Shown one piece after another: positions 10,152 to 32,342 of a stretch of 64,000 bases of DNA. A program made the translations under genes and the position numbers. Numbering within the stretch: the stretch's first letter is position 1; every line of letters starts with the position of its first letter. The notes under the pieces are model-generated. The model ran no database searches and had not been told where the DNA came from. It saw only the letters and a list, made by a program, of their open reading frames with translations. The stretch lies in contig JBAYKT010000006.1 of NCBI GenBank assembly GCA_041664445.1, forward strand, positions 8,058 to 72,057. The letters run 5' to 3'. Origin of the DNA: Patescibacteria group bacterium (GTDB lineage Bacteria > Patescibacteriota > Patescibacteriia > Patescibacteriales > UBA12465).

Positions 10152-10180
10152 ATTATAGGGATAAGTTTGAAAGTTGTCAA
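10152..10180 (-). promoter_or_regulatory. perfect consensus sigma70 promoter (TTGACA-17 nt-TATAAT) upstream of infA
   Basis: The minus strand reads TTGACA (10180-10175), a 17-nt spacer actttcaaacttatccc, then TATAAT (10157-10152). It lies between the alaS stop and infA. Confidence 0.7.
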
Positions 10181-10190
10181 TAGTTAACAC

Positions 10191-13091: not shown

Positions 13092-14903
13092 TTATTCTTC
13101 CAATTCACCGACTTCTTGCAGTTTTAATAATTTAGAATACAGGCCTCCGGAAACTCTGGCTAATTCCAAATGATTCCCTTCTTCGGCCACCTGGCCATTT
13201 TCCAAGACAATTATTTTATCAGCATTTTTAATAGTACTCAAGCGATGGGCAATAATAATCATGGTGCGCCCGCGGCTAATCTTTTTCATCGCGTCAGAAA
13301 TCAAGCGTTCACTCTCGCTATCCAAACTGGAAGTCGCCTCATCAAAAATTAAGACTCGAGGATTGGCCAAAATTGCACGGGCAATCCCTAAACGCTGTCG
13401 TTGGCCGCCGGACAATTTAATGCCTCGTTCGCCCACTAAAGAATCATAGCCTTTCCCCAGCTTAAGAATAAATTCTTCAGCATTAGCAATGCGCGCCGCG
13501 GCTTGAATCTCCTGTTTAGTGGCGTCTGGTTTGGCATAAGAAATATTTTCAGCCACCGTTAAATCAAAAATTTCTACTTCCTGCGGAACAATCGCCAAGA
13601 ACTTACGAAAAGCTTTTAAATCATAAGAGCGTAAATCGCGGCCATCAAGCAAGACTTGACCTGACTGCGGATCGTAATGGCGATAAACTAAACGCGCGAC
13701 TGTGGTTTTGCCGCCGCCGGAAGGTCCAACCAAGGCCACGACGGAACCGGAACTGATTTTAAAATTTAGTTTAGAAACCGCGGTTCGCAAATTATCACCG
13801 TAAGCGAAAGAAACATTCTTAAAAGCAATTTCTCCGACTATTTTTTTAGGAATAAGCCCTCTAGTTTTATTCTTAATTTCATCAGTGGCATTAAACAATT
13901 GTAATAAGCGATTAACGCCTTCACGCCCTTCTTCCATCTTATCGTAAAATCTGGTCAAACGGTATAAAGAAGCATAAGCAGTTTCGCTGAGCGTAAAAAT
14001 AAAGATTAAAGTACCGACGCTCATTGAGCCTTCAGCCACCAAATAAACGCCCAACAACAAAACAGTGGCCCGACCGATATCAGCAATGGAATTTCGTACT
14101 AAACCGATTTTCATCATCCAACCCCATTGCTTATCTTCATTTTCTCTTAGGTCATTTTTAATTTTACCGAACTCGCGGAGCTCACGGTCTTCCTGAACAA
14201 ATGATTGGACGGCATTAATATTAATGATTGACTGAGTCATTTTGCCAGAAGCGGTTTCATAATCGCGATAAATTTGTTTTCTGACCGGATACATACGACG
14301 ATTAGACCAATAAACAATGGCAACGAAAATAGCGGCAAAAAACAAAAAAGAGGAACCAATTCGCCAATCTGACCAAAATAAAGCAACTAGCGTAAAACTT
14401 AGTTGAATAAGTGTCGGAAAAAACTCCCAAAAGAAATTGTTTAAAAATTCGGAAATCTTATCAACTCCTTTTTCTATTTTAATTATCTTGGCGCCGGTAT
14501 TTTGTTTTTCATGATATCCTAAGCTGAGCGAAACTAATTTCTCCTGCGCTTTCATGCCTAAAGAATATTCAACCTCCACCAACATCCGCAAAATCTGACG
14601 GTCACTAAAATAATGAATAAAAGAACGCACTTCTTCCGTCGTCAAATAAAGAGCAATTAACTTTAACAAAAAAATGATGCGCTCTTTATCAAAATTATTT
14701 AAGCTATCGACCACTACTTTTAAAAGATAGGGTTTTAATAAATCCAAGGCGCCAATAAACAGCGAAATAATAACAATTTTGATAAAAAACTTGCGGAAGG
14801 GCTTAAGTAAAAACCAAAAATCAAACCAAAAACTACGACGAGCGCCGCTAGTTTCTAATTTTTTAAAATCTAGTTTTTTTTCAGTGGTTTTTGTTTTTTG
14901 CAT
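13092..14903 (-). CDS. ABC exporter, fused TMD-NBD (MsbA/multidrug-type), embedded in the mur cluster
   Basis: Six predicted TM helices, then Walker A GPSGGGKTT, signature LSGGQRQR and Walker B LIFDEATSSLD. The ATG at 14903 overlaps the murC 3' end by 34 nt. Confidence 0.85.
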   Translation of the reverse strand: MQKTKTTEKKLDFKKLETSGARRSFWFDFWFLLKPFRKFFIKIVIISLFIGALDLLKPYLLKVVVDSLNNFDKERIIFLLKLIALYLTTEEVRSFIHYFSDRQILRMLVEVEYSLGMKAQEKLVSLSLGYHEKQNTGAKIIKIEKGVDKISEFLNNFFWEFFPTLIQLSFTLVALFWSDWRIGSSFLFFAAIFVAIVYWSNRRMYPVRKQIYRDYETASGKMTQSIININAVQSFVQEDRELREFGKIKNDLRENEDKQWGWMMKIGLVRNSIADIGRATVLLLGVYLVAEGSMSVGTLIFIFTLSETAYASLYRLTRFYDKMEEGREGVNRLLQLFNATDEIKNKTRGLIPKKIVGEIAFKNVSFAYGDNLRTAVSKLNFKISSGSVVALVGPSGGGKTTVARLVYRHYDPQSGQVLLDGRDLRSYDLKAFRKFLAIVPQEVEIFDLTVAENISYAKPDATKQEIQAAARIANAEEFILKLGKGYDSLVGERGIKLSGGQRQRLGIARAILANPRVLIFDEATSSLDSESERLISDAMKKISRGRTMIIIAHRLSTIKNADKIIVLENGQVAEEGNHLELARVSGGLYSKLLKLQEVGELEE

Positions 14904-17455: not shown

Positions 17456-18607
17456 CTAGGAACGCTTGAGCCCACGAGTCTGTTTACTGATATTAACTAA
17501 AATTCCCATAGCAATCAAGGCTGATAAAATAGCCGAGCCGCCGGCAGAAATAAAAGGTAAGGGCACGCCGGTCATCGGAATCAGATTAATCATGCCACCG
17601 ATATTCAAAAAAGTCTGAACCGCCAACCACACTACAATTCCGGTGGCCAAAGTCTGGCCATACAAATCAGGGGCGGCGGAAGCAATCATTAAACCGCGAT
17701 AAAAAATAAACAAGAAAAGCAATAATAATAAGGAGCTAAAGATAAAACCCATCTCCTCAGAAGCAATTGAGAAAATTGAATCGCCCCAAACTTCCGGCAA
17801 ATACATAAACTTTTGACGACTTTGTCCTAAACCGCGACCAAGCCAACCACCAGAACCAACAGCAATCAATGATTGGTTAATCTGATAACATTTATCTTGG
17901 GCGCTATAACTAGGGTCCTTCAAACATTTAAAACGGTCGCTTTGATAAGACGACTTCATGCTTAGCATTAAAAAAAGCAATAATCCGGCAAATACCACTA
18001 CTAAAAAAATGTGTTTTATTTTGCCACCGCCGACAAAAAATACCATCATGGCAGTAAAGGCAATAATAAATAAAGTGCCTAAATCCGGTTGCGCCAACAT
18101 CAACAAGCTAATGATTCCCAGAATAAACAAAAAAGGAACGATGCCGCCGGAAAAGCTATTCAAATCGCCTTTCTTAGCCTCTAACCAAGTCGCCAAATAA
18201 ATTAAGAAGGATAATTTCACCAACTCGGCTGGCTGGAAAGAGTGGCCAAAAAGATTAATCCAGCTGCGAGCTGTTCCGTATTCCGACCTAATGCCGGGAA
18301 TAAACACCAGCGTTAACAGCACAATAGAAAAAATCAAAAATAGAAATGCGTATTTGCGCCAAACTCGATAATCAATTTTAGAGACAATAAAAAAAGCGGC
18401 TAAACCAATGGCAATCGCGGTTAACTGATTAAGAAAATAGAAATAGGTATTGCCATAGCGAGCATAAGAAACAACCGAGGAGGCGCTGAATAAAAGAACC
18501 AAGCCAAAAATTAATAAAACCATAACGGCAGCAATCAAGCTTTTATCGGGTTCATGTTCTCCTGATCGCAGAGAAAGAAATCTTTTTTTCAAAGCAGATA
18601 ACTTCAT
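17456..18607 (-). CDS. ftsW: SEDS-family peptidoglycan polymerase FtsW/RodA (FtsW by context)
   Basis: Polytopic membrane protein with SEDS motifs (PAELVKL, GGWLGRGLGQS, PVTGVPLPFISAGGSA). Lies between mraY and murG. Its ATG overlaps the mraY stop (ATGA). Confidence 0.8.
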   Translation of the reverse strand: MKLSALKKRFLSLRSGEHEPDKSLIAAVMVLLIFGLVLLFSASSVVSYARYGNTYFYFLNQLTAIAIGLAAFFIVSKIDYRVWRKYAFLFLIFSIVLLTLVFIPGIRSEYGTARSWINLFGHSFQPAELVKLSFLIYLATWLEAKKGDLNSFSGGIVPFLFILGIISLLMLAQPDLGTLFIIAFTAMMVFFVGGGKIKHIFLVVVFAGLLLFLMLSMKSSYQSDRFKCLKDPSYSAQDKCYQINQSLIAVGSGGWLGRGLGQSRQKFMYLPEVWGDSIFSIASEEMGFIFSSLLLLLFLFIFYRGLMIASAAPDLYGQTLATGIVVWLAVQTFLNIGGMINLIPMTGVPLPFISAGGSAILSALIAMGILVNISKQTRGLKRS

Positions 18608-19650
18608 ATCTGCTTATCTAGAAGAAAAATAATCAGCCCCATAACAGCGCCTAGGCCGGCAATTACCCAAAATCTCATAACTACCTTGGATTCCGTCCAG
18701 CCGATAGCCTGGAAATGATGATGAATAGGCGAAGATATAAAAACTTTTTTATGGCGCAAGCGTTTAGAAAGCGTTTGAATAATTACGGAAAGTGATTCTA
18801 ATAAAAAGATTAAACCAATAAAGACCAGGAGCAAGGCGTTATTAGTTAACATGGCAATAATGCCCAAGGTAACACCTAGACTCATGGCGCCCGTGTCACC
18901 CATATAAAATCGCGCCGGCGGAATATTAAACCACAGGAAAGCCAGCAAGGCGCCAATAATAACCGCGCAAAAGGTTGCTAAATCATAGCGCCCCATCACA
19001 AAAGCAATCACGCCATAAGAGGCAAAGGCAATCAACAGAGTTCCACCCGCCAGACCATCAAGACCGTCAGTTTCATTTACCGAAAAAGAAGTGGCAACAA
19101 TGATAAAAATAAAAATAGGAATATACCAGGCACCAATTTCAAAATTACCAAAAAATGGCACATGCATCACGGTCCAATCAAGCTTAAAATAAAACCATAA
19201 GGCACCGATTAGAGCGATGAGCGCGTAGATAAGCAAGCGATGGCGTAACTTTAAACCGCCGCCGCCAAAAACACCCTTATCTCTGACATCCAGCCAATCA
19301 TCAATTAAACCAATAATAGCGGTGGCCACTAAGGCTCCTAAGGGCAACAGCGTTTCCGCTCGAGATAAAAAATTAAATTTCTGAAAAACACCTCCGGGGA
19401 ATAACTCTGACAAAAGATAAAAAAACCCAATTAAGATTAGGGCTGTCCCCCAAATTAAAACTCCACCCATGGTCGGAGTCCCTGCCTTATGCGCATGAAG
19501 CTCGCTAAAAATTGGGGTAGAGCCGCTGTTTCTAATCTTTTTTCCTAATTTATATTTATATAAAAAGTGGGTGAGGAGCGGCGTCGCTAAAACAGCAAAC
19601 ACGAAAGAAAGGGTTGAAAAGAAGAGAATCCTGATAATTTGGTATTCCAT
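18604..19650 (-). CDS. mraY: phospho-N-acetylmuramoyl-pentapeptide transferase
   Basis: GTPTMGG, NETDGLDGLAGG, FYMGDTGAMSLG and PIHHHF motifs are all canonical MraY. Confidence 0.95.
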   Translation of the reverse strand: MEYQIIRILFFSTLSFVFAVLATPLLTHFLYKYKLGKKIRNSGSTPIFSELHAHKAGTPTMGGVLIWGTALILIGFFYLLSELFPGGVFQKFNFLSRAETLLPLGALVATAIIGLIDDWLDVRDKGVFGGGGLKLRHRLLIYALIALIGALWFYFKLDWTVMHVPFFGNFEIGAWYIPIFIFIIVATSFSVNETDGLDGLAGGTLLIAFASYGVIAFVMGRYDLATFCAVIIGALLAFLWFNIPPARFYMGDTGAMSLGVTLGIIAMLTNNALLLVFIGLIFLLESLSVIIQTLSKRLRHKKVFISSPIHHHFQAIGWTESKVVMRFWVIAGLGAVMGLIIFLLDKQI

Positions 19651-19660: not shown

Positions 19661-20074
19661 TTATCTAAAATTTATAAAATTAAGAGCCAAAAGGGCTAAA
19701 CTCAAGAAAACAGCAAAGGCTACGGCCGCTCCCAACAAAAAATGAATTATCAGCCTGGTTTCCTGGCGTCTGGCTAAGACAGCGGCTAAAATGACATTAA
19801 TAATAGCTACGCCTAAACCAAACAGTGGGTAATAAAAAATTGATTGCGGACGGCCAATCAAGTCAACACCAAAATCAATATTATAATGCAAAATTGTAAA
19901 ATCGCCCGTTAAACGACGATAAATGGCGATGGTTTGCAGCCAAGCCAGGGCCTGCAAAAAAATAATGAGCCCTGCATAAATCTTGGTAAAATTAAATTTA
20001 AAAATACGCTTAAAAGCTGCCCCGGAAAGTTGCAAAAAAGTATAAAAACGAGCGTAAAAATTAGAATAATTCAT
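19661..20074 (-). CDS. hypothetical membrane protein upstream of mraY
   Basis: 137 aa with 3-4 hydrophobic helices and no recognised motif. Co-directional with mraY, 10 nt away. Confidence 0.5.
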   Translation of the reverse strand: MNYSNFYARFYTFLQLSGAAFKRIFKFNFTKIYAGLIIFLQALAWLQTIAIYRRLTGDFTILHYNIDFGVDLIGRPQSIFYYPLFGLGVAIINVILAAVLARRQETRLIIHFLLGAAVAFAVFLSLALLALNFINFR

Positions 20075-20156
20075 AGAAAAAACGAGATAATTATATCTTA
20101 ATTATTAGCTTAACATATTTTTAAAATAATATAAAATATGCTAACATAATAGCATT

Positions 20157-21161
20157 ATGATAAATAAAACTTTCAGTGGCTTATTTAATTTTGCCAAACA
20201 GGAAAAAGCGGAAAGAATTGTAATTTCCGGGTCAGAAAAAGGCCATTCTTGTCGTTGCCATCTTCCGGACGGCGAAGAAGCAGTCTTTAATCTGCCTAAA
20301 AAATTGGAAAACGACCTAGCCGAAAATTTACGCGCTCTGTTAAAAATTGCTCCTGGAGAACTGGCGACCGAAAAATATTGCCAGTGGCGCGATAAAAATA
20401 ATGATTTAAATTTCAAGCTCAGTATAATTCCGGATAAATTCGGGGAAAAAATAATTATTAGTATTATCCAGGAAGATAAAGAATTTTTAAGCTTAAACCA
20501 ACTGGGCTGGCAAAAAAATGATTTGGAGTTATTAAAAAATATCAGCCGCTCGGGTTCCGGATTGATTATTGTGAGCTCGCCCGAAAGACAAGGACGCAGC
20601 ACCACTCTTCAAGCTATCTTAAGCGACCTTAATCAAGAAAATAAAAACATTTACTTTCTGGGAAATGACGAATTTAATATTCAAGGAATAAATTTTTTAG
20701 AAAACACTTCAGAAAATTGGAATCGAATTTTGGGGCACGATTCGGACATTATTGCCCTGGAGATTAAAGAGGATGATCCAGAAAGCATCAAGCGCGCAAT
20801 TATGGCCGCCAGTACCGGACGTTTAGTGCTGGTCTCGCTTAAATCCGTCAATGCCTTGCAGGCTCTTTATCAAATTTTAAAAAGCGGTCTGCCCTTGAAA
20901 TTAATTTTGGATAATCTTAAGATAATAAGCGGCCAGGAACTGGCGGCTTTAAAAAGAAAAACAGCTAAAGCCAAGAGAAAATACATTGGCATTTTCGAAA
21001 CTTTCGTTCCCCGCTCGGAGACTATCAGCTTCATTAGCAAAAACCACAAAAAATTAGCAACTGCTAAATTTTGGGAGGATTTTTTCCAAGTAGCCAGTGA
21101 TAATGGTTATCAGCCGTTAATCGTCGATAAAAATCAAAAGAAAAAAGACGGACTAGTTTAA
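20157..21161 (+). CDS. PilB/GspE-family secretion-ATPase homolog with degenerate catalytic motifs (probable pseudo-ATPase)
   Basis: The segment GLIIVSSPERQGRSTTLQAIL...DSDIIALEIKED...AASTGRLVLVSLKS is colinear with GxxLVTGPTGSGKTTTLYAxL...DPDVIMVGEIRD...AAxTGHLVLSTLHT of type II/IV secretion ATPases. The Walker A Gly/Lys and the His-box His are replaced. Confidence 0.6.
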   Translation: MINKTFSGLFNFAKQEKAERIVISGSEKGHSCRCHLPDGEEAVFNLPKKLENDLAENLRALLKIAPGELATEKYCQWRDKNNDLNFKLSIIPDKFGEKIIISIIQEDKEFLSLNQLGWQKNDLELLKNISRSGSGLIIVSSPERQGRSTTLQAILSDLNQENKNIYFLGNDEFNIQGINFLENTSENWNRILGHDSDIIALEIKEDDPESIKRAIMAASTGRLVLVSLKSVNALQALYQILKSGLPLKLILDNLKIISGQELAALKRKTAKAKRKYIGIFETFVPRSETISFISKNHKKLATAKFWEDFFQVASDNGYQPLIVDKNQKKKDGLV

Positions 21162-21166
21162 AAATA

Positions 21167-21829
21167 ATGAAAAAAATCTGCATCATCCCGGCCTATAACG
21201 AAGCCAAAAATATTAGCGAAGTAATCAAGCGTGTTCGGCCTTTTGTTGACGAAATCGTGGTAATTGACGACGGCTCGCAAGATGAAATGGCAATTATCGC
21301 CAAACAAGCTGGTGCGACTGTTTTAAGGCACGCTGTTAATCGCGGGCAAGGAGCCGCTTTACAAACCGGGAACGAATATGCGCTCTTACAGGGCGCCGAT
21401 ATTATTATCCATTTTGACGCCGATAATCAATTTCAAGCCGAAGAAATTCCGGACTTAATCGTTCCCATTGAATCGGGCCAAGCGGAAGCAGTTTTGGGTT
21501 CGCGCTTTTTATCAAAAAAATCTAATTTACCAGCTTTTAAAAAGCAGGTAATTATGCCTCTTGCTCGCCTGATTAACCGCTGGCTGTTTAATATTCGTCT
21601 TAGTGACCCGCAAAGCGGTTTTCGTGTCCTAAGTCGGAGTGCGGCGGAAAAGATAATTATTACCAATGACCGGATGGCGCATTGTAGTGAAATTTTGCAT
21701 CAATTATTTAAAAATAAAATAAAAACTATAGAAATTCCGATTACCGTTATTTATCATGAATTTGGCCAAAAATTTTCTGGCGGGGTTCGAATTATAAAGG
21801 ACTTGGCGATTAAAAGAATTATCAAATAA
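21167..21829 (+). CDS. family 2 glycosyltransferase (polyprenyl-phosphate sugar synthase-like)
   Basis: IIPAYNEAKNI, VIDDGSQD, NRGQGAALQTG and DAD motifs are typical of the GT2/DPM1-like family. Confidence 0.85.
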   Translation: MKKICIIPAYNEAKNISEVIKRVRPFVDEIVVIDDGSQDEMAIIAKQAGATVLRHAVNRGQGAALQTGNEYALLQGADIIIHFDADNQFQAEEIPDLIVPIESGQAEAVLGSRFLSKKSNLPAFKKQVIMPLARLINRWLFNIRLSDPQSGFRVLSRSAAEKIIITNDRMAHCSEILHQLFKNKIKTIEIPITVIYHEFGQKFSGGVRIIKDLAIKRIIK

Positions 21830-21857
21830 AAAAGGCTCTTTAAAAAAGAGCCCTTTT
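21828..21857. terminator. bidirectional intrinsic terminator between convergent genes
   Basis: The GGCTCTTT / AAAGAGCC stem is flanked by an A-run upstream and a T-run downstream. Confidence 0.7.
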
Positions 21858-21873
21858 CAGTGCCCAAGAGCTG

Positions 21874-22368
21874 TTAGCCAGCGATAATCGGCACTAAGAT
21901 TTTTTCAATCAGGAGCACCCCAAAAGTCATTACCAGGAATTTGATTCCCAAACAACGATTAATGAAGTCATGAAGTTCCATCATTTCCGCAGCCTGTTCC
22001 GATGTATGCTGTTTTTTCCAGAAGAGATTCATGGCTGTCCAGGCACTAGTAACGGTCAGCAGACCAAAAATAGCAAAAGCGAACCATAAAATACCGCCAG
22101 ACATTCCCTGTAAATCCCAAAGGAATAAACCGATTATTGTTAATAACCAAGCATCGAAGGAAAATGAAAAAACCTTTCTCAGTTTTTCCATCAGATAAGT
22201 CAGCACAACCGCGATAATAGCAATAGCCAGCAGAATGCCAGCAACAACTTCGTCGCTGATATGTAAACGAGAACCCTGAGTAATCAGAATAAATCTGATA
22301 AGCGCAAATACTCCCAGGAAGAAGAGGCTCATTCCGAGCTCTTTCAACCAATTTGATTTCTGTTTCAT
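21874..22368 (-). CDS. hypothetical integral membrane protein
   Basis: 164 aa with about 5 hydrophobic helices and no recognised motif. Confidence 0.5.
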   Translation of the reverse strand: MKQKSNWLKELGMSLFFLGVFALIRFILITQGSRLHISDEVVAGILLAIAIIAVVLTYLMEKLRKVFSFSFDAWLLTIIGLFLWDLQGMSGGILWFAFAIFGLLTVTSAWTAMNLFWKKQHTSEQAAEMMELHDFINRCLGIKFLVMTFGVLLIEKILVPIIAG

Positions 22369-22508: not shown

Positions 22509-22868
22509 ATGCTGCAACAAATCATTGCTCTCGCCCTTATCGCCATTTTTATCTGGCGCCTGAGCGAGCAAAAGAAGAAGAAAAAGATTGGCCAAAATGA
22601 ATTTATTTTCTGGCTCGCTTTCTGGCTTTTGGGTGTGGTGGCAATTATTTTGATTAAACAATTGGACCGCTTAGTTGGCGCTCTCGGCTTCTCTGGTTCC
22701 GGTATTAACTTCCTGCTCTATTTGACAGTGATGATTTTGTTTTATATGGTTTTTAAGCTCCGCCTAGCCCTCGCTAAAATGGATGCTAATTTAACGAGTG
22801 TTGTGAGAAAAATTGCGCTTTTAGAAAATAGCGACCCTAATAATAAAGACCCGGAGCCCCAAAAATAA
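22509..22868 (+). CDS. small membrane protein, DUF2304-like (commonly found beside GT2 genes)
   Basis: 119 aa: a TM helix, a KKKKK patch, two more TM helices and an amphipathic C-terminus. The DUF2304 resemblance is from memory only. Confidence 0.4.
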   Translation: MLQQIIALALIAIFIWRLSEQKKKKKIGQNEFIFWLAFWLLGVVAIILIKQLDRLVGALGFSGSGINFLLYLTVMILFYMVFKLRLALAKMDANLTSVVRKIALLENSDPNNKDPEPQK

Positions 22869-22871: not shown

Positions 22872-24011
22872 ATGAAAATTGCCCAGATAGTCTGTGCTTA
22901 TCCGCCCTATGCCGGTGGCATCGGCAACAGCGCTTACCGTTTCCACGAGCTGTTAAGCGTTAAGCATGACATTGTTAATTTTACGCCTGATAACACACGG
23001 CCGTTTTTACGACGCGGGCATGGCGCAGTTTTGCCCCAACTCTTATGGAAGCTGCGGAAATTTGATTATATCTATTTGCATTATCCCTTTTTCGGTACGG
23101 CGGAAATTGTCTGGCTTTTTAAAATTTTTTGCAAGCGGCCAAAACTGATTATCCAATATCATATGGATGTTAAAAATCAATCTTCAGCCGCTAAAATTTT
23201 AAGCCTACCAAGCCGCCTAATTAGAGACTCTCTTTTCAATAAAGCCGAGGTTATCGTCAGCTCCAGCCTAGATTATGTTAAACATGGCCAATTAAAAAAA
23301 TACTATGAATCCCACATGGAAAAGTTCCAAGAGATTCCCTTTGGGATAGATTTGCAAAAATTCCAACCAAATCCCATTAGCCAACCAAGCGCCAATAACC
23401 TAATCGCGAAAGTCAAAAATATTGTTAAGCATATTAATGATTTATTTATCAAAAAAGACCGCTTGGATTTAATTTTTATCGGTGGCTTAGATAAGGCTCA
23501 TTACTTCAAGGGAGTAAGTGTTCTACTCAATTCCCTACCAAGTTTAGACCAAAGAAAATGGAACTTAAAAATTGTCGGCGATGGTGACTTGCGTCCGGAA
23601 TACGAAAATTTGGCCGCTCGCCTTAATCTGAATAAACGCGTAGAATTCGCCGGCAAGCTCAGCGATGCGCAAATGATTAAAGCCTTACAAAATTCCGACC
23701 TATTAATTTTACCGTCAGTCAACAATAACGAAGCTTTCGGCCTCGTCTTAATTGAAGCGCTGGCTTGCGGTGTCCCAGTTATCGCTTCCGACCTCCCCGG
23801 AGTCAGAAAAGTATTTGCCGACAAGCGTGAAGGCTTGCTGGTTATTCCCGGAAGCGTTGAAGATTTAAATCGTAAATTAGAATTCGTTCTAAAAAATGAA
23901 GGTTTGCGACAAGAGATGGCTAAGGCGGCGCGGCGCTTAGCTATCCGAAAATATGATCAAGAGCTGATGAAACAAAAATATGAAAATCTGTTTGCTGAAC
24001 AATCTCTATAA
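22872..24011 (+). CDS. family 4 (GT-B) glycosyltransferase
   Basis: N-terminal YPPYAGGIGN. C-terminal EAFGLVLIEALACGVPVIASDLPG is the E(x7)E-type GT4 signature. Confidence 0.8.
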   Translation: MKIAQIVCAYPPYAGGIGNSAYRFHELLSVKHDIVNFTPDNTRPFLRRGHGAVLPQLLWKLRKFDYIYLHYPFFGTAEIVWLFKIFCKRPKLIIQYHMDVKNQSSAAKILSLPSRLIRDSLFNKAEVIVSSSLDYVKHGQLKKYYESHMEKFQEIPFGIDLQKFQPNPISQPSANNLIAKVKNIVKHINDLFIKKDRLDLIFIGGLDKAHYFKGVSVLLNSLPSLDQRKWNLKIVGDGDLRPEYENLAARLNLNKRVEFAGKLSDAQMIKALQNSDLLILPSVNNNEAFGLVLIEALACGVPVIASDLPGVRKVFADKREGLLVIPGSVEDLNRKLEFVLKNEGLRQEMAKAARRLAIRKYDQELMKQKYENLFAEQSL

Positions 24012-25032
24012 GCCCTATAACCGCGGCGGGGCGGAAAATGTCGCCGCGGCCATGATTGAATCATATCAAGGCACCGGCCATGAGGTCTTTTTGATTACTA
24101 CCAGGCCAAATAATCTTGATTTAGGAGAAAATAAAGATTGCCGAACTTTTTATATTAATTCCGAATTTTATAACTTAAACAAAAAATCGAAATTAGTACG
24201 TCTATTTTGGCATTTTTATAATTTACGCGCGACCAAAAAATATCACGCGCTCAAAAAAATATTACAAACCGAAAAACCTGACCTAGTAATTTCACATAAT
24301 TTAATGGGCCTGGATTTTAAAATCGCGCAGGCTATCAAAGAATTAAAAATTGAACACCATCATTTTTTACACGACATCCAACTACTACATCCTTCAGGAC
24401 TAATAATTTATGGGAATGAAAATATTGTTAATAGTTTAAGTGCCAAACTTTACCAAAAAATAACCAGACTCTTTCTGGGCTCGCCTGATTTAATTATTTC
24501 TCCTTCCCGCTGGCTCTTAGAGGAGCACTTAAAGCGCGGATTTTTTAAAAACTCAAAAACAGAAATTCAGAAACTGGAAAATATTTTAAATATTAAATTA
24601 TCGATAGTGGCAAATACAAATCATCCGCCATTTAAACGTTTGCTATTTGTCGGGCAACTGGAAAAACACAAAGGCCTTCTCTTTTTGCTTGACGCTTTTA
24701 AAAAACTGGCGACCGCTGAGATGACGCTCACAATTGGTGGCGACGGGTCACTGTTAAAAACCGCGCAAAACCTGGCTCAAGCTGATAAGCGAATACACGT
24801 CTTAGGGCGCCTAAACCCAGAGGATTTAAAAAAAACATTCCAAGAAACAGACGTACTGATTATGCCTTCGCTCTGCTACGAAAATTATCCGTTAATCATT
24901 ATTGAAGCGCGGCAAGCGGGCCTGCCCGTCATTGCCGCTAATCTCGGCGGCATTCCGGAAGCGCTAGGAAATGGCGGCCGACTTTTTAAACCGGGTGATG
25001 CCAACGATTTATTTAAAAAAATAAACGAATAA
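23980..25032 (+). CDS. family 4 (GT-B) glycosyltransferase
   Basis: YKPYNRGGAENV at the N-terminus. ENYPLIIIEARQAGLPVIAANLGG is the GT4 signature. Overlaps the upstream GT4 gene by 32 nt. Confidence 0.8.
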   Translation: MKICLLNNLYKPYNRGGAENVAAAMIESYQGTGHEVFLITTRPNNLDLGENKDCRTFYINSEFYNLNKKSKLVRLFWHFYNLRATKKYHALKKILQTEKPDLVISHNLMGLDFKIAQAIKELKIEHHHFLHDIQLLHPSGLIIYGNENIVNSLSAKLYQKITRLFLGSPDLIISPSRWLLEEHLKRGFFKNSKTEIQKLENILNIKLSIVANTNHPPFKRLLFVGQLEKHKGLLFLLDAFKKLATAEMTLTIGGDGSLLKTAQNLAQADKRIHVLGRLNPEDLKKTFQETDVLIMPSLCYENYPLIIIEARQAGLPVIAANLGGIPEALGNGGRLFKPGDANDLFKKINE

Positions 25033-25043: not shown

Positions 25044-25075
25044 AAAAAATCGGACATTAGAGTCCGATTTTTTTA
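25044..25075. terminator. bidirectional intrinsic terminator
   Basis: The AATCGGAC / GTCCGATT stem has A-run and T-run flanks. It lies between convergent GT4 (+) and UXS-like (-) genes. Confidence 0.75.
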
Positions 25076-25094: not shown

Positions 25095-26120
25095 TTAATA
25101 GCTTCCGAACCCCTGCAGTTTCTTTTGCGCCTTAACATCAAAAATTGTCTTGCGCAAACCATTCTCCAGCGTAACGACTGGCATCCAACCAAGTTCATTG
25201 CGGGCCAACTTAATATCCGGCAAAATTAATTCAGTCATAAATACTAGATTTTCCCCATGAACAATTTTAGACTTTGACCCTGTTTCATTAATTATAATTT
25301 GCGCTAAATCAACCAATTTACAATCAATATCAGAACCAATATTAATCGGGCCGGCAATATCGGTTGTCATCACTTTAGAAACCGCGTCTAACAAATCTTC
25401 AATATAGCAGAAAGAAGAAGAAAAATTCTCGTCACCATTAATTACTAAGTCTTTATCCTCCAGGGCATTATTAATAAAATCAGGAATCATCTGGCCATCG
25501 TTTGATTCCATGCGCGGGCCATAAATTCTGAACACTCTGATTATTTTAGTATCGAGCTGATAAATTTCGCGATAGGCGGCAACCAGTGTTTCTGAAAAAC
25601 GCTTGCCCTCATCATAAGAAGCGCGAGTGGAAAGCTGGTCAACTACTCCCGGGTCTGATTCACGCGCCTTAAACTCCGGATTATCGGAACGGCGGGGACC
25701 ATAAACGACCGAGGAAGAAAAATGCAAGAACTTAGCATTATGGATTAAGGCTAAATCCAATAAATTTTTAACGACCGAGGAATTAGCTTCCAGCGTTGCC
25801 AGGCGATTATTTAAAAAATTACGCGGCGACATCGGACAGGCTAAATTATAAATCTCTTGAATGCCCTGAAATTCAACCTTAAACTTTTTTAACTCATTAA
25901 CTTCCGCCAAATCAAGCGGCTTGGATAAATCGTGATTAATAAAAACAAAGTTGGGATTAGCTAATAAATGGTCAATATTCCGCTCACTGCCGGAAATAAA
26001 ATCATCAATGCAAATAACCTTGCAGGTCTTAATTAATTCATCGCAAAGATGGGAGCCAATAAAACCGGCGCCACCGGCGACTAGCACATTCTTTTTATCA
26101 AAGATAATTTTCTTAGGCAT
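25095..26120 (-). CDS. NAD-dependent sugar-nucleotide epimerase/dehydratase, UDP-glucuronate decarboxylase (UXS)-like
   Basis: VLVAGGAGFIGSHLCDEL (GxxGxxG) and the catalytic YDEGKR motif match the UXS subfamily of extended SDRs. Confidence 0.75.
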   Translation of the reverse strand: MPKKIIFDKKNVLVAGGAGFIGSHLCDELIKTCKVICIDDFISGSERNIDHLLANPNFVFINHDLSKPLDLAEVNELKKFKVEFQGIQEIYNLACPMSPRNFLNNRLATLEANSSVVKNLLDLALIHNAKFLHFSSSVVYGPRRSDNPEFKARESDPGVVDQLSTRASYDEGKRFSETLVAAYREIYQLDTKIIRVFRIYGPRMESNDGQMIPDFINNALEDKDLVINGDENFSSSFCYIEDLLDAVSKVMTTDIAGPINIGSDIDCKLVDLAQIIINETGSKSKIVHGENLVFMTELILPDIKLARNELGWMPVVTLENGLRKTIFDVKAQKKLQGFGSY

Positions 26121-26126
26121 ATATGA

Positions 26127-28172
26127 TTAGTTATTTATTCTTATTATACCAGCATTAACGCCACCGTTAAAGTCCTGATCGTAAGCGTAGAAGGATTCCA
26201 AAATTAATCCGTCGCCGCTAAAAACTCTGACATGAGGCGTGGCGCCGCTATAAGCGCTGAGGATTATTTCAGAAACGCCGTCGCTATTAATATCACCAGC
26301 CGATAAATTGACACCTCCTTGCCAACTCTTTCCATAAGCCAGAAATTTATTAATCAATTGAGCTCGATTATTATAAATTTTAACTTGTGGTTCTCGGCCT
26401 GACCCGGGAGCAACTATAATTTCGGCCTTATTATGATCTTTGCGACCATCTAAATTAGCAACTGCGACATTAACTCCACCACGAAAACTTTTTTCATAAG
26501 CCAAGAAACTGCCGATTAATTTTCCATCGGAATTAAAAATTCTAATCTGCGGCTCACTTCCTTTTCCGAAACCAACTACAATCTCCGGTAAACCCTTGCC
26601 GTCAATATCTCCGGCGGAAATATTAAATCCTCCTCGCCAATTGCTTGGCGCCGCTAAAAATTGTCCTTTTAAATTTCCCCGATAATCAAAAATTTTAATT
26701 TGTGGACTACCACCAGAAGCAGGCGCCACAATTATTTTTTTGGCACCGCTATTATCCAGATCTATCAAAGCAACATTTAGACCGCCACGAAATTTTTTAT
26801 CGGCCGCCCAAAATTCTCCCAATAATTTTCCCTGATTACTTAAAATTCTAATTTTTGGTTCATCGCCAACAGCCGCTCCTACCACTATCTCATCAACCCC
26901 ATTATCGTTAATATCGCCAGTTACAAAGGGCGCACCGGTTTTAATGGCACTATCCGGCAAATAATATGCCAAATCGCCATTAGCAGCTACAACCTTGAGT
27001 TTATTCTTTTGAGTTGCGGGCAAAATCAATAAACGACCGAGATGATTATATAATTTTTCTTTGGCCATTTCGACAGCGCGATTGACATTTAAGCGGCCAT
27101 TACCGAGCTGACCTAAATAATCAGGATTTAGGCGGCTAATATTATCCGTGGAAGCAAACAAAATATTAACAGTTTCGCGGCGACTCAACTCCGGATTGGC
27201 TTGTTGGATTAAAGCAAGTGTGGCTGAAACTAAAGGCGCCGCCATGGAAGTCCCAGACCAATAGCCATCATAATATTTAATCGCTCCCGCGCGACTATCG
27301 CCGGTTACGGTATTAAAAAAACTAATTCCGGGAGCGGCAATATCCACACAACTAAAACCATAACTGGAAAATTTAGTTTTCTGATCAAGTGCGTCAGTGG
27401 CAGCCACGCCGATAACCATATTTTCACCAACCAAATTACCATCGTAACAAGCGGGGTAAATTTTGGTTTTATCGATATTATAACCTTCGCCGGCAGCCTG
27501 TTCGTTCCCGGCGGCGGCGACAATCATTACCCCGGCATTATGAGCCCGAGTAATTGCTTCTTGCAAACCGGCGCTATAATTAAAACTGACAAAACTAAGA
27601 TTAATAATATCAGCGCCATTATTGATTGCGTAGTCGATGGCGCGAATAACATCGCTAGCTCGTCCTTCGCCCTTATCGTTTAAAGCTTTAAGCGGCATAA
27701 TTTTGGCACGCCAAGTTACTCCGGCTACACCTTGGTTATTATTACCGCGAGCGGCGATAATTCCAGCTACCATAGTTCCATGAGAAATTCCGGCCTCAGT
27801 CCAGCCATCAGCAAATTTAGGCGAAGGATCGGGGATATTGGCGGAAAAATCCCAACCATTTATATCATCAATAAAACCATTGCGATCATTATCAATGCCG
27901 TCCCCAGAAATTTCTCGGTTATTTTTCCAAATATTATCACGCAAATCGGGATGATTTATTTGAATGCCAGAATCAATAACTGCAATTACCGTATCTGGGC
28001 TTTCCGAGACCTTATCCCAAGCACTATCAGCTTTAATTTTGGAAAGATACCACTGATTGCTAAAGAAGGAATCATTAGGCGTAATGCCAGCATAAACCGG
28101 CACGGCCAGCGCGCTTAGAAGTATAAAAAAAGATGTTATTATTTTATTCATATAACATCTATATAATACCAC
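26127..28172 (-). CDS. secreted subtilisin-like (S8) serine protease fused to a C-terminal FG-GAP-type beta-propeller
   Basis: Catalytic triad contexts VIAVIDSGI (Asp), SHGTMVAGIIAA (His) and GTSMAAPLVSA (Ser). Signal peptide after the probable true start at the ATG at 28151. About 6 repeats of ~48 aa, e.g. RGGxNVxxGDIDGDGxxEIVVxxGxGxxPQIRIF. Confidence 0.85.
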   Translation of the reverse strand: MVLYRCYMNKIITSFFILLSALAVPVYAGITPNDSFFSNQWYLSKIKADSAWDKVSESPDTVIAVIDSGIQINHPDLRDNIWKNNREISGDGIDNDRNGFIDDINGWDFSANIPDPSPKFADGWTEAGISHGTMVAGIIAARGNNNQGVAGVTWRAKIMPLKALNDKGEGRASDVIRAIDYAINNGADIINLSFVSFNYSAGLQEAITRAHNAGVMIVAAAGNEQAAGEGYNIDKTKIYPACYDGNLVGENMVIGVAATDALDQKTKFSSYGFSCVDIAAPGISFFNTVTGDSRAGAIKYYDGYWSGTSMAAPLVSATLALIQQANPELSRRETVNILFASTDNISRLNPDYLGQLGNGRLNVNRAVEMAKEKLYNHLGRLLILPATQKNKLKVVAANGDLAYYLPDSAIKTGAPFVTGDINDNGVDEIVVGAAVGDEPKIRILSNQGKLLGEFWAADKKFRGGLNVALIDLDNSGAKKIIVAPASGGSPQIKIFDYRGNLKGQFLAAPSNWRGGFNISAGDIDGKGLPEIVVGFGKGSEPQIRIFNSDGKLIGSFLAYEKSFRGGVNVAVANLDGRKDHNKAEIIVAPGSGREPQVKIYNNRAQLINKFLAYGKSWQGGVNLSAGDINSDGVSEIILSAYSGATPHVRVFSGDGLILESFYAYDQDFNGGVNAGIIRINN
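26130..26990 (-). repeat. ~6 tandem FG-GAP-like repeats (protein level) in the S8 protease C-terminal region
   Basis: Recurrent units: GDINDNGVDEIVVGAAVGDEPKIRIL, IDLDNSGAKKIIVAPASGGSPQIKIF, GDIDGKGLPEIVVGFGKGSEPQIRIF, ANLDGRKDHNKAEIIVAPGSGREPQVKIY, GDINSDGVSEIILSAYSGATPHVRVF. Confidence 0.75.
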
Positions 28173-28207
28173 AAACGGCGTTTTTTACAAATCGCAAATA
28201 AGCCGAT

Positions 28208-29419
28208 TTAGGTGCTCAAAATTTCCTTCAAAGTTTCTTCGGCGCATTTTTGCCAGCTAAAATTTTGCGCTCTTTCCAGGCCTTTTTTTATTAACTCCTG
28301 ATGCAGCTCGCGGTTATTAATGATTTTAGCCATTGCTTCGGCAATCGCCTTTTTATCTTCATGATTGAAATATAAAACAGCATCAGCGGCAACCTCTTTG
28401 AAAACCGGAATATCGGAACAAGCAACTGGTAAACCGCAGGCCATAGCTTGTAAAATTGGAATGCCGAAACCTTCATGCTTGGATGGAAAAATAAAAGCGC
28501 TCGCCCCGTTAAAAATACAAGGCATATCTTCCTCAGCCACCCAACCGGGCATTAAGACTTCATTGTTCAAATTGAATTCTTCAATGACATATTTGACCTC
28601 GTCATAGCCAAAGCTAGCATCGCCAATCAGAACCAGTTTCTCCTTAATTTCCGGATGGCTGTCGTGCATGATAGATAAAGCCTCAATTAACGCTGGGGTA
28701 TTTTTTTTCTTTTCTAAGCGGCCAACATATAAAAAATATGGCTGTTCTAAATTATATTTTTCCAACTTAGCTTTAATTTTTTCTTGATCACGGCCCATTT
28801 TATATAAATCGTCATTATAGCCGTTATGAATAACAGTGATATTATTGGCCTTAGCGCGCGGATAAAAACTTAAAATATCTTGTTTGGTAAAATTAGATAC
28901 GGTAATTATCTTTTTAGCGCGACGTAAAGCAAAATCGGTTGACCAATACAAATAATCTAGAGATTCGGAATGATATTTTCCTAAAGTAAACAAGCGCACC
29001 AAAAACTCCACAATCTTTTTAGATAAGGCACGGTCAGTCTTTACGCCTTTAGATTGATAAAGATTGCGATCCCGCGCAAAAGCAATATCGTGAATCGTGT
29101 TAATAGTCCGCTTAGGATAAACTAAGGGCATGGTATGAGCCGGGATAAATAAAATATCCGGCTTATGAAAAATCATTTCTAAAGTTAAGCGGCCCAAGGT
29201 CCAAAAAGAAAGAAAAGGCCAATGTAAAAATTTAACGGAAAAATTAGGATTATCTTTAATAATCTCTTGGAGTTCCGAAGATGGCAAGTCATTTAAATAA
29301 AGGAGATATTTATTTTCCTTATCAATTTTTGCCAAATTTTTAATTAAGTAAAAAGAGTACCATTCGGTACCAGTCTTTCTTTTTAAATTAGCCCTGGAGG
29401 CGTCTATTCCAATAGTCAT
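28208..29419 (-). CDS. family 4 (GT-B) glycosyltransferase
   Basis: EGFGIPILQAMACGLPVACSDIPVFKEV is the GT4 signature. 403 aa. Confidence 0.8.
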   Translation of the reverse strand: MTIGIDASRANLKRKTGTEWYSFYLIKNLAKIDKENKYLLYLNDLPSSELQEIIKDNPNFSVKFLHWPFLSFWTLGRLTLEMIFHKPDILFIPAHTMPLVYPKRTINTIHDIAFARDRNLYQSKGVKTDRALSKKIVEFLVRLFTLGKYHSESLDYLYWSTDFALRRAKKIITVSNFTKQDILSFYPRAKANNITVIHNGYNDDLYKMGRDQEKIKAKLEKYNLEQPYFLYVGRLEKKKNTPALIEALSIMHDSHPEIKEKLVLIGDASFGYDEVKYVIEEFNLNNEVLMPGWVAEEDMPCIFNGASAFIFPSKHEGFGIPILQAMACGLPVACSDIPVFKEVAADAVLYFNHEDKKAIAEAMAKIINNRELHQELIKKGLERAQNFSWQKCAEETLKEILST

Positions 29420-29420
29420 A

Positions 29421-29451
29421 AATAAATAACAGCTAACCGATATGGTTAGCC
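29421..29451 (-). terminator. probable intrinsic terminator after mreB paralog 1
   Basis: GCTAACC / GGTTAGC stem (7 bp, 5-nt loop), followed on the minus strand by tgttatttatt. Confidence 0.5.
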
Positions 29452-29453
29452 GT

Positions 29454-30461
29454 TTATTTAGTTGCTAAAATACTGCGCTTATATGAATCTAAATTGTCTA
29501 AGGCAATCCCAGTGCCTTTGGCAACACAGAGCATGGCATCGTCAGCGACATAAGCCGGCACGCCGGTCGTGCGCGCAATCAGCTGATCCATGTTGCGGAG
29601 CAAAGAGCTCCCCCCGGTTAGAACAATTCCCTTATCCATAATATCCGCCGATAACTCCGGCGGGGTTTTTTGTAAAACTTTTTTGGAAGCGGAAATAATC
29701 GCTTCTAGCTCATGCTGAATCGCTTCGGTAACGTCATCGCTAGAAACGGTAATACTGCGTGGCAAGCCCGTAACAATATCGCGGCCCCGAACTTCCATAT
29801 GCAGCTTATCCTCCATATACAAAGCCGAACCAATATTTATTTTAATTTCTTCAGCTGTTCGTTCGCCAATCGCTAGATTATATTTTTTGCGGACATATTC
29901 CAAAATTGCGGCATCAAATTTATTGCCACCAACTCTTACTGAAGTTGAAGCTACCACGCCGCCCAAAGAAATAACGGCCATTTCCGCGGTACCACCGCCA
30001 ATATCAATTACCATATGGCCAGTTGCCGAACCAATAGGAATATCCGCGCCAATGGCCGCTGCTACCGGTTCCTTAATAATATAGGCTGCTTTAGCGCCAG
30101 CCGCAATCGTGGCCTCAATAACCGCCCGTCTTTCTGTCGAAGAAATTCCGGCCGGAACAGCCACCATCACCTCTGGTCTAAATAAGCGTAAACCGCCTAA
30201 AGTTTTATTAATAAAATATCTAATCATGGCTTCAGTCGCCCGATAATCGGCAATAACGCCATCTTTTAGGGGTTTGACCGCCATAATAGTATCGGGGGTG
30301 CGCCCCAACATATCTTTGGCTTCATTGCCAACAGCTAATATTTTTTTGTCCGCGATTGATACTGCCACCACGCTCGGCTCATTAACAACAATACCTCGAC
30401 GAGGTAAATAAACCAAAGTATAAGTTGTGCCCAAATCAATCCCGATTTGTTTAATAAACAT
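29454..30461 (-). CDS. mreB: actin-like rod-shape protein MreB, paralog 1 (stand-alone)
   Basis: IGIDLGTTYTLVY, DIGGGTAEMAVISLGG and GIVLTGGSSLLRNMDQLI are the MreB/actin-fold phosphate and adenosine motifs. Confidence 0.9.
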   Translation of the reverse strand: MFIKQIGIDLGTTYTLVYLPRRGIVVNEPSVVAVSIADKKILAVGNEAKDMLGRTPDTIMAVKPLKDGVIADYRATEAMIRYFINKTLGGLRLFRPEVMVAVPAGISSTERRAVIEATIAAGAKAAYIIKEPVAAAIGADIPIGSATGHMVIDIGGGTAEMAVISLGGVVASTSVRVGGNKFDAAILEYVRKKYNLAIGERTAEEIKINIGSALYMEDKLHMEVRGRDIVTGLPRSITVSSDDVTEAIQHELEAIISASKKVLQKTPPELSADIMDKGIVLTGGSSLLRNMDQLIARTTGVPAYVADDAMLCVAKGTGIALDNLDSYKRSILATK

Positions 30462-30523
30462 AAGATGTATACAACTACCTATTCTAACCGCTTACGCGCC
30501 TTAAGTCAATTTAAAGATATTCA

Positions 30524-30955: not shown

Positions 30956-30968
30956 ACTTATTTATTAC

Positions 30969-31934: not shown

Positions 31935-31935
31935 A

Positions 31936-32331: not shown

Positions 32332-32342
32332 ACATCTTTTGA

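Follow-up and report, generated by a model that had tools for sequence, protein, structure and literature searches.

We analyzed a 64-kb stretch of DNA from a Patescibacteria group bacterium (GenBank assembly GCA_041664445.1, contig JBAYKT010000006.1, positions 8,058 to 72,057; here called the window) and found that one of its open reading frames (ORFs), at 20157..21161 on the + strand, encodes a degenerate homolog of the PilB/GspE clade of pilus and secretion ATPases, which we named psPilB. Judged by its sequence, psPilB lacks the conserved catalytic residues of these motors and thus qualifies as a pseudoenzyme by sequence-based criteria. Purifying selection maintains the gene, which shows no decay and stands ahead of glycosyltransferase genes rather than with pilus genes. 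Our preferred reading, to which we give even confidence, is that psPilB is a non-motor pseudo-ATPase functionally tied to this glycan operon. An earlier interpretation of the same DNA made without database searches (the sequence-only reading) had called the protein a candidate pseudo-ATPase, and this is supported as far as computation reaches, given that catalytic residues are replaced family-wide in a gene that selection maintains.

psPilB retains the fold of PilB/GspE ATPases

The psPilB ORF is 334 aa long and begins with an ATG in the ORF listing of the window. Just 4 in-frame codons lie upstream of this ATG before the preceding stop, and we take the start codon to be correct because alignments to homologs begin at Met1. 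psPilB matched the Pfam T2SSE family (PF00437; E = 7.3 × 10−20; 71.4 bits against a gathering score of 24.9) over profile positions 73 to 282 of 370. It also matched the NCBIfam families GspE, PilB, TfpB, and ComGA (E values of 1 × 10−14 to 2 × 10−24), all far under their equivalog cutoffs (GspE, 86 versus 630 bits; PilB, 80 versus 676; ComGA, 51 versus 300; the GspE and PilB cutoffs span 617 to 676 bits). Residues 13 to 273 matched PilB chains in the PDB (5zfr, 5tsg, and 6olj; E ~ 2 × 10−19). An AlphaFold2 model computed from a 35-sequence family alignment was confident (pLDDT, 86.9; pTM, 0.75), and its best Foldseek matches in the PDB were Thermus thermophilus PilF, Geobacter PilB, and Vibrio cholerae EpsE (E ~ 4 × 10−25; TMq up to 0.79 over the whole chain). 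psPilB is therefore a true PilB/GspE homolog, with similarity far above chance, and the model supports a fold composed of an N2 domain and a RecA-like C-terminal ATPase domain. The sequence-only reading had described the ORF in these terms, and Pfam, PDB-chain matches, AlphaFold2, and Foldseek all confirm it; secretion ATPases head the structural matches, so the lack of similarity that would count against the description was not what we found.

The shared N2 and C-terminal ATPase fold is colinear with that of PilB, GspE, and PilF (PilT-like ASCE ATPases, PF00437) over about 260 residues, and psPilB also has several of their scaffold motifs: GEK(I/V), Gly146 and the Thr of Walker A, the DxD of Walker B, the Gln of QRL, and the GR.GI(F/Y)E strand. 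Within N2, psPilB carries a family-specific LPKKLE motif at residues 46 to 51 and Y74 in place of the Arg of the canonical QDGR. Two canonical elements are missing. The Pfam search returned no match to the N1 domain (T2SSE_N/MshEN, PF05157), and window psPilB contains no CxxC pair of the tetracysteine Zn motif or Zn-finger insertion. Since its R..IGLFE strand and C-terminal helices are the counterpart of the canonical region that follows the Zn finger (GR.GI(F/Y)E), the psPilB C terminus appears to be the canonical one minus the Zn insertion.

Residues required for coupled hydrolysis are replaced across the family

In PilT-like ATPases, the Walker A and Walker B motifs, the catalytic Glu, two arginine fingers, and one ASP-box Glu are completely conserved, one HIS-box His is highly conserved, and mutation of these motifs abolishes activity (McCallum et al. 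2017, PMC5424180). In Geobacter PilB (GmPilB), the Mg-coordinating residue is E357, R271 and R286 act as nucleotide sensors from across the subunit interface, and H420 contacts the gamma-phosphate (PMC5424180). We took a census of these positions in 129 psPilB-family members and 80 canonical PilB/GspE proteins, which came from an exhaustive search of sequence representatives (see below) and were aligned to a single profile. GmPilB numbering was transferred via a HMMER alignment to 5tsg (chain offset, +20). The corresponding features of psPilB are as follows.

20157..20492, + strand: N2 domain, residues 1 to 112 (from alignment to PilB chains, model secondary structure, and the conservation table)
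20415..20462, + strand: the two arginine-finger positions, both lost (K87 corresponds to GmPilB R271 and S102 to R286)
20574..20606, + strand: degenerate Walker A, SSPERQGRSTT versus canonical TGPTGSGKTTT (from profile alignment)
20646..20678, + strand: former ASP-box region, NIYFLGNDEFN versus canonical NIxTxEDPVEy (from alignment to PilB chains)
20736..20774, + strand: Walker B strand, HDSDIIALEIKED versus canonical QDPDIIMVGEIRD (from profile alignment)
20811..20852, + strand: former HIS box, STGRLVLVSLKSVN versus canonical LTGHLVLSTLHTND (from profile alignment)

Among the arginine fingers, the R271 position is Tyr in 67 family members, Arg in 25, His in 15, and other residues, including Lys, in the rest; at the R286 position, Asn (62 members) and Ser (40 members) dominate. 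Canonical proteins have Arg at each of these positions in 79 to 80 of 80 cases. A third Arg, R257 of QDGR, is replaced by Tyr in 119/129 members (Y74 in psPilB). In the HIS box, H413 (His in 80/80 canonical proteins) became R222, an Arg shared by 122/129 family members, and H420 (His in 78/80) became K229, with Thr, Lys, or Glu in the family. The loss of both His residues was correctly noted by the sequence-only reading; its list of eroded motifs was incomplete in that it missed both arginine fingers.

The Walker A core reads SPERQGRS in psPilB and GPTGSGKT in canonical proteins, and the pattern G-x-x-G-x-G-K-[ST] fails. The first Gly is Ser in 102/129 members. At the Lys position, 79 members have Lys and 48 have Arg (R147 in window psPilB), and the Lys-to-Arg replacement is clade specific within the family. 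About 18 independent changes were counted at this position on a neighbor-joining tree, between Lys and Arg and once each to Leu and Ile; because it changes repeatedly, the catalytic Lys is not under constraint, though a positive charge is usually kept. G146, the Gly directly before this position, is invariant across the family, and the Ser/Thr that follows is retained in 115/129 members (S148 in psPilB). Thus, the earlier description of Walker A as eroded, with Lys changed to Arg, stands, but not all of the glycines were lost as it had stated.

The peptides on which that description was built (SPERQGRST, S141 to T149; DSDIIALEIKED; TGRLVLVSLKS; and FKLSIIPDKFGEKIIISI) are all present in the ORF. 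However, its Walker B/Asp-box motif merged two distinct motifs. The true ASP box, canonically EDPVE, is G169-N-D-E172, in which E353 is replaced by G169 (mostly Gly, Ser, or Asp in the family). The first ASP-box Glu is indeed lost; the survival of two acids, the Mg-binding E172 and E202, had been overlooked. An E357-equivalent Glu is present in just 64/129 members. The Walker B strand retains D195 and D197 with a Gly deleted, and its first Asp is found in 126/129 members. An acid occupies the catalytic-Glu or the Gly position (E202 in psPilB; Asp in 79 and Glu in 40 members, 119/129 in all), in a register that sequence alone does not fix.

Taken together, the alignments indicate that residues holding phosphate and Mg are largely retained, whereas those that sense the gamma-phosphate between subunits and couple it to hydrolysis are gone. 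From this pattern, we infer that psPilB has lost ATP hydrolysis; nucleotide binding may persist, given the P-loop positive charge, the Ser/Thr, and the Walker B acids.

psPilB belongs to a monophyletic family in Falkowbacteria-like Patescibacteria

A first large protein search returned about 95 proteins of ~335 aa with 35 to 96% identity to psPilB, hosted by Candidatus Falkowbacteria or by unclassified Patescibacteria metagenome-assembled genomes. An exhaustive search against 1.84 billion representatives returned 43 clusters at E ≤ 1 × 10−30, followed by a distinct drop to canonical PilB/GspE proteins at about 80 to 115 bits. The family comprises about 130 to 140 sequence clusters from Falkowbacteria-like Patescibacteria; closed genomes with the gene include CP066698.1, OW818634.1, and FLOH01000015.1. 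Its distant short forms are of two kinds, one of about 360 to 390 aa with two CxxC pairs and one of about 290 aa that is C-terminally truncated. In a neighbor-joining tree, all 139 degenerate sequences were monophyletic relative to 15 canonical proteins. The Zn motif (two CxxC) occurs in 11 basal members of 355 to 389 aa, and all other members have lost it; the tetracysteine motif characteristic of the PilB/GspE clade was thus kept at the base of the family and lost in most members, including window psPilB. The distribution suggests an order of loss in which N1, the arginine fingers, and the HIS box would have gone first, followed by the Zn finger and then, in the window's clade, by the change of Lys to Arg.

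By score, psPilB comes nearest among canonical proteins to double-T2SSE proteins of ~1000 aa, one of which bears the label Paceibacterota. The two nearest of NCBI origin, P0141 and P0145, belong to unrelated assemblies, with no pilus genes found close by. The nearest relatives with intact catalytic residues, in other candidate phyla radiation (CPR) genomes (L035, 10001-12985, and L036, 5187-8225), likewise have ~1000 aa and two T2SSE domains. They do not adjoin pilus genes either; their neighbors include RuvB, an integrase, and tRNA synthetases.

Public records currently label psPilB relatives as PilB-like, TadA, HofB, GspE, or the ATPase of a type II secretion system, type IV pilus, or type IV secretion system. 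By homology and fold, psPilB belongs to the PilT-like/T2SSE superfamily. Given that it departs from a PilB/GspE enzyme in Walker A, the arginine fingers, the HIS box, the N1 domain, the Zn motif, pilus-gene context, and equivalog scores, psPilB should not carry the annotation PilB, GspE, or TadA. In the searchable literature, we found no account of a PilB pseudo-ATPase or of a degenerate GspE family in CPR bacteria.

The psPilB gene is under purifying selection

To quantify constraint, we calculated the ratio of nonsynonymous to synonymous substitution rates (dN/dS; codon-based Nei-Gojobori) between psPilB and its three closest orthologs (91, 82, and 73% identity). The resulting values of 0.069, 0.095, and 0.113 fall inside the range of neighboring genes (unk137, a small membrane protein gene, 0.07 to 0.09; GT4b, the second of two family 4 glycosyltransferase [GT4] genes, 0.11 to 0.15; MurG, 0.11 to 0.20; the family 2 glycosyltransferase [GT2], 0.03 to 0.06; and MreB, ≤0.007). 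With a dN/dS of ~0.1, pseudogene decay is rejected. Consistent with this, psPilB ORFs are intact in about 140 sequence clusters and in 34 related loci whose neighboring genes have diverged to 55 to 80% identity. Moreover, about 25 positions are ≥85% conserved in the family yet unlike the canonical sequence (LPKKLE at 46 to 51, P66, Y74, L136, Y166, W188, R222, and others), which points to new constraints and not mere relaxation.

We also asked with which neighbors psPilB covaries in rate, using pairwise distances among 14 taxa from which the mean of five housekeeping genes had been regressed out; the pairs are non-independent. psPilB covaried best with the three glycosyltransferases of the operon (r = 0.35, 0.33, and 0.26), with values for division and cell wall (dcw) genes of ≤0.18. 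This preference is suggestive only.

psPilB is encoded with glycosyltransferases and beside the lipid-II genes

psPilB diverges from a minus-strand dcw series over an 82-bp AT-rich spacer. Away from psPilB, the minus-strand order is unk137, MraY, FtsW, MurG, a Mur ligase, an MsbA-like ABC exporter, MurB, and alanyl-tRNA synthetase. In the other direction, psPilB is followed on the plus strand by GT2, DUF2304, and two GT4 genes, with a minus-strand 164-aa gene inserted after GT2. Beyond this block, the minus strand resumes with an epimerase/dehydratase, an S8 subtilase with FG-GAP repeats, another GT4, and MreB. The features of the divergent region and the plus-strand block are as follows.

18604..19650, − strand: MraY, enzyme of the first committed step in peptidoglycan synthesis that consumes polyprenyl phosphate
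19661..20074, − strand: unk137, 137 aa, three predicted transmembrane (TM) helices; first gene of the MraY-FtsW-MurG-MurC unit in every related locus
20110..20137, + strand: promoter-like site, TTAACA-16-TAAAAT, in the divergent spacer, 20 nt upstream of the psPilB start (consensus match)
21167..21829, + strand: GT2 glycosyltransferase, 220 aa, soluble; best NCBIfam match PpgS; start 5 nt past the psPilB stop
21834..21852, + strand: hairpin and T-run directly 3′ of GT2 (pattern match only)
21874..22368, − strand: 164-aa multi-pass membrane protein between GT2 and DUF2304, without Pfam or NCBIfam match, found in close relatives only
22509..22868, + strand: DUF2304 small membrane protein of the GacJ/Rv3632 family (PF10066, E = 1 × 10−16)
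22872..24011, + strand: GT4/GT1-family glycosyltransferase, 379 aa (family profile match)
23980..25032, + strand: second GT4 glycosyltransferase, 350 aa, with a 32-nt overlap with the preceding GT4
25044..25073, either strand: hairpin with a 12-bp stem and T-runs on both strands at the convergent end of the plus-strand block (pattern match only)

The number of promoter-like sites upstream of psPilB was not above the shuffled expectation. GT2 scored 160 bits over the full length of the NF058614 profile (PpgS, polyprenyl-phospho-N-acetylgalactosamine synthase), under the 370-bit cutoff, and no TM segment was predicted in it. In view of the hairpin after GT2, psPilB and GT2 may form a bicistronic unit in the window.

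We compared this arrangement across the 34 related loci (24 GTDB species genomes and 10 metagenome or genome contigs), which include the most divergent family members P0096, P0160, P0151, P0220, and P0207 (25 to 32% identity). Every locus with sufficient flank has psPilB, GT2, DUF2304, GT4, and GT4 on the plus side and unk137, MraY, FtsW, MurG, and a Mur ligase on the minus side, and the same gene order is found in Zn-motif-bearing members at 25 to 32% identity. The psPilB stop and GT2 start overlap (ATGA) in 18/33 loci and lie 1 to 11 nt apart in 13 more. DUF2304 is directly 3′ of GT2 in most loci, with one opposite-strand gene intervening in the window, its close relatives, and L033. Adjacency by itself is weak evidence and partly phylogenetic inertia, because all loci come from a single clade that is syntenic across the region. 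The stop/start overlap is the stronger evidence and argues, from sequence, for co-expression with GT2. In this respect, the sequence-only reading was correct to call psPilB stand-alone with regard to pilus genes only, since the gene is operonic with GT2 (a 5-nt gap here and an ATGA overlap in most relatives).

No gene for PilC, PilM/N/O, PilT, PilD, or a pilin was present among the ORFs scanned (about 60) in the window, nor was a second T2SSE-family ORF found there; in the 34 related loci, no pilus gene was found within ±8 to 10 kb, and each locus had exactly one T2SSE ORF within ±10 kb. The earlier statement that no pilC, pilM, or pilin gene is adjacent and that glycosyltransferases follow therefore extends to the full 64 kb, with GT2 and two GT4 genes downstream. 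Where the sequence-only reading had left a pilus and the surface glycan open as settings for psPilB, the evidence favors the glycan (invariant synteny, overlap with GT2, and no nearby pilus gene).

A predicted role in lipid-linked sugar synthesis

Two systems provide a frame for this gene order. GacJ and Rv3632 are small DUF2304 membrane proteins that bind and strongly stimulate the undecaprenyl-phosphate-N-acetylhexosamine (HexNAc) synthases GacI and PpgS (Rush et al., bioRxiv 10.1101/180810). As in GacI/GacJ of Streptococcus pyogenes and PpgS/Rv3632 of Mycobacterium tuberculosis, the order here is GT2 then DUF2304, and the DUF2304 protein has three TM segments. Those systems are two-component and have no PilB-like gene, whereas here a third, PilB-derived gene precedes or overlaps GT2. 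The GT2 of the window falls under the PpgS equivalog cutoff and is a putative synthase of the GacI/PpgS type.

The second precedent is Myxococcus xanthus PilB, which controls exopolysaccharide production independently of ATP hydrolysis and whose nucleotide state has been proposed to set its signaling conformation (Black et al. 2017, PMC5544727). According to a 2024 review (PMC11656802), this is the sole reported direct regulatory input by PilB. It offers a case of a PilB-type protein that affects polysaccharide without ATP hydrolysis or pilus assembly. However, M. xanthus PilB is a bona fide, competent pilus motor that moonlights via the Dif pathway; psPilB is a dedicated, truncated, motif-eroded paralog in a glycosyltransferase operon, with a predicted link to polysaccharide. 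Short PilB homologs of the ComGA type resemble psPilB in size and in their N1-less N2 and C-terminal domain architecture (NCBIfam ComGA, E = 8 × 10−14 over the full profile). ComGA retains the catalytic motifs and sits in comG pilus operons, neither of which is true of psPilB, and its cutoff of 300 bits is far above the psPilB score of 51. More generally, psPilB differs from PilB, GspE, and PilF in lacking N1/MshEN, both arginine fingers, both HIS-box His residues, and the first ASP-box Glu; in the Ser that begins its family's Walker A and the frequent change of Lys to Arg; and in being encoded ahead of glycosyltransferases instead of with PilC, PilM, and pilins.

On this basis, psPilB descends from a PilB/GspE-type pilus or secretion motor ATPase and would have become a pseudoenzyme; many family members have also lost the Walker A Lys and the ASP-box Glu. 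The remaining P-loop charge (Lys or Arg), Ser/Thr, Walker B Asp, and trailing acid make nucleotide or phosphate binding plausible. The inter-subunit hydrolysis cycle of pilus motors, which is coupled through arginine fingers and the His box, would be beyond its reach. psPilB would be produced together with, and often translationally coupled to, a soluble PpgS/GacI-like GT2, which with its GacJ-like DUF2304 membrane partner is the predicted source of a polyprenyl-monophosphate-HexNAc donor; the two GT4 genes come next in the operon. psPilB itself may work in the cytoplasm close to the membrane, as a scaffold or an allosteric regulator that is possibly oligomeric, may respond to nucleotide state, and would tune synthesis of the lipid donor for envelope glycan beside MraY-FtsW-MurG, which shares the polyprenyl-phosphate pool. 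Ligand binding, the GT2/DUF2304 partnership, the oligomeric state, and the biochemical product are all predictions in this scheme. We regard the specific mechanism, psPilB as a scaffold or regulator of polyprenyl-phosphate-sugar synthesis, as tentative.

A related version, also possible rather than probable, is that a motor ATPase of a type IV pilus or type II secretion system was exapted to serve, without catalysis of its own, as a dedicated subunit of a complex that synthesizes polyprenyl-phosphate sugars (GT2, DUF2304, and the GT4s). A PilB-like ring or oligomer would then dock glycosyltransferases at the membrane in place of a pilus platform and could couple nucleotide status to envelope-glycan synthesis next to the lipid-II machinery of CPR bacteria.

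Alternative explanations

Several observations weigh against a dedicated, non-catalytic role in the glycan operon. The synteny derives from 34 loci of one clade in which the whole 20-kb region is syntenic, and in the window the plus-strand series is interrupted between GT2 and DUF2304 by a hairpin and an inserted gene on the opposite strand. Of the proteins in the block, psPilB shows the lowest conservation in almost every comparison (identity across loci of 27 to 57%, compared with 74 to 87% for MraY, 57 to 80% for GT2, and 89 to 99% for MreB), and some lineages have C-terminally truncated forms of 287 to 311 aa; such rapid evolution and truncation would fit a role that is accessory or under loose constraint. 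The rate correlation is weak and does not lend itself to formal statistics. At the active site, the Mg-binding ASP-box Glu E357 is retained in window psPilB as E172, which together with S148, D195/D197, and E202 might allow residual or rewired hydrolysis, and the invariant R222 could stand in for a His or an arginine finger.

The last point has its own explanation, namely that psPilB is an active but rewired ATPase that uses the Walker A Lys/Arg, the Walker B acid, and R222 to power glycan-lipid extraction, flipping assistance, or export, or else an unusual pilus motor. G146, the Ser/Thr, the Walker B Asp, and an acid at the catalytic-Glu position (119/129 members) are retained, an invariant family-specific Arg occupies the H413 position, and a passage in the pseudoenzyme literature (PMC10211241) cautions that catalytic residues can migrate. 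We nevertheless consider this quite unlikely: the family as a whole has lost both arginine fingers and the His that contacts the gamma-phosphate, the Walker A Lys position switches time and again between Lys and Arg and is Leu or Ile in two members, the Mg-binding Glu is present in just half of the members, the Zn finger and C-terminal helices are dispensable in sublineages, and psPilB evolves faster than all of its neighbors, unlike conserved motors. That psPilB is instead a decaying, functionless pilB remnant would agree with its eroded catalytic motifs, its rank as the least conserved protein of the neighborhood, and a possibly disrupted copy in one locus (L025). Such an origin is very improbable, being effectively refuted by selection and conservation data: dN/dS of 0.07 to 0.11, full-length ORFs across a clade in which MraY is just 74 to 87% identical, about 25 family-specific positions conserved in ≥85% of members, and a confidently folded model.

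psPilB might also still be a pilus component, as an inactive PilB paralog that modulates canonical PilB or PilT through mixed oligomers or by competing for PilC or PilM sites; its position before GT2 would then be a lineage-specific accident held by general synteny. Its nearest relatives in sequence and fold are PilB, PilF, and GspE, basal members retain the PilB/GspE-specific tetracysteine motif, a passage in one study (PMC11623550) reports type IV pili to be well conserved in Patescibacteria, and the restriction of all loci to a single syntenic clade leaves room for such an accident. We judge this unlikely, however, in light of the GT2 stop/start overlap in 18/33 loci and gaps of ≤11 nt in 13 more, and of the lack of any pilus gene within ±10 kb of the 34 loci or in the window. 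Furthermore, psPilB has neither the N1 domain, the docking site of PilB cofactors such as PilZ, nor the N2 arginine fingers that a neighbor's active site would need in a mixed ring. We therefore retain the pseudo-ATPase tied to the glycan operon as our preferred reading.

Other features of the window and related loci

Within the plus-strand operon, the 164-aa membrane ORF is confined to the window and its closer relatives (27 to 88% identity), and L033 carries a different 141-aa minus-strand gene (9824-10249) at the same spot. The GT2/DUF2304 junction thus looks like a recurrent insertion point within the operon. In L025 (10001-11621), a stop at 10840 cuts the psPilB match short, and GT2 is represented by its C-terminal part only, ~365 nt beyond. 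The copy may be disrupted or misassembled, and the finding could indicate that psPilB is dispensable. Six loci (L005, L010, L011, L016, L018, and L025) are in records titled "Candidatus Saccharimonadales" or "uncultured Gammaproteobacteria" but carry a Falkowbacteria-type locus with full synteny, and these titles are probably taxonomic mislabels. A defense-system interpretation of weak "GT4-conflict" Pfam matches was rejected as generic GT4 similarity beneath stronger GT1/GT4 matches.

On the minus strand, unk137 had no Pfam or NCBIfam match and is 35 to 96% identical across related loci; it may partner, in this lineage specifically, with the lipid-II machinery or with psPilB. A 603-aa MsbA/PglK-like ABC exporter (13092-14903, − strand) lies between the Mur ligase and MurB in the dcw segment, a position kept in most related loci but not in L033, in which the Mur ligase and MurB are immediate neighbors. 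The exporter is a candidate for flipping lipid-linked glycans. The sole DNA-uptake or pilus-related function seen in the window is a ComEC-type competence channel (Pfam Competence and DUF4131; 2832-4166, − strand).

Between the plus-strand operon and mreBC, the region at 25095-33798 is rich in sugar-nucleotide genes (two epimerase/dehydratases, a dTDP-sugar-isomerase-like protein, and a PfkB kinase) and, with the operon included, makes up a larger envelope-glycan island that lies between dcw and mre. The S8 subtilase fused to FG-GAP repeats (681 aa, 26127-28172, − strand) lies between the epimerase and GT4 in all related loci and may be a secreted or surface protease tied to the glycan region. 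A stand-alone response regulator (30524-30955) also lies between the operon and mreBC. Two MreB paralogs and MreC are found within 7 kb (29454-30461, 35216-36256, and 34375-35187, respectively, all − strand), and the first MreB is 89 to 100% identical across the clade, which is notable for ultrasmall CPR cells. The minus strand carries nearly all genes of the window, and the GC skew is negative in every 2-kb bin but one (+0.03), at 20001-22000, the start of the plus-strand operon. The sequence-only reading had called this operon the only plus-strand block, which is nearly so; the L28 gene at 1462-1773 is also on the plus strand. No tRNA genes were found in the window.

Implications for PilT-like ATPases and the CPR envelope

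The prevailing view of PilT-like ATPases is that they are motors dedicated to pili, secretion systems, and archaella, with catalytic residues described as universally conserved, and the psPilB family departs from this pattern. If the preferred reading is true, a motor scaffold can find new use in envelope-glycan biosynthesis or in its regulation; under the exaptation version, psPilB would be the first natural family-level PilT-like ATPase pseudoenzyme with a non-filament function. The family provides a natural set of "mutants" with which to ask whether a given PilB residue serves fold and assembly or catalysis. For metabolic reconstructions of Patescibacteria, the labels PilB, TadA, HofB, and GspE on these CPR genes should not count as evidence of a pilus or secretion system. 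These predictions, made in uncultivated organisms, may come as a surprise to specialists in type IV filament motors and are relevant to the biology of the CPR cell envelope: the operon points to an uncharacterized variant, made of three parts, of the GacI/GacJ-type lipid-sugar synthase in a group with barely studied envelopes.

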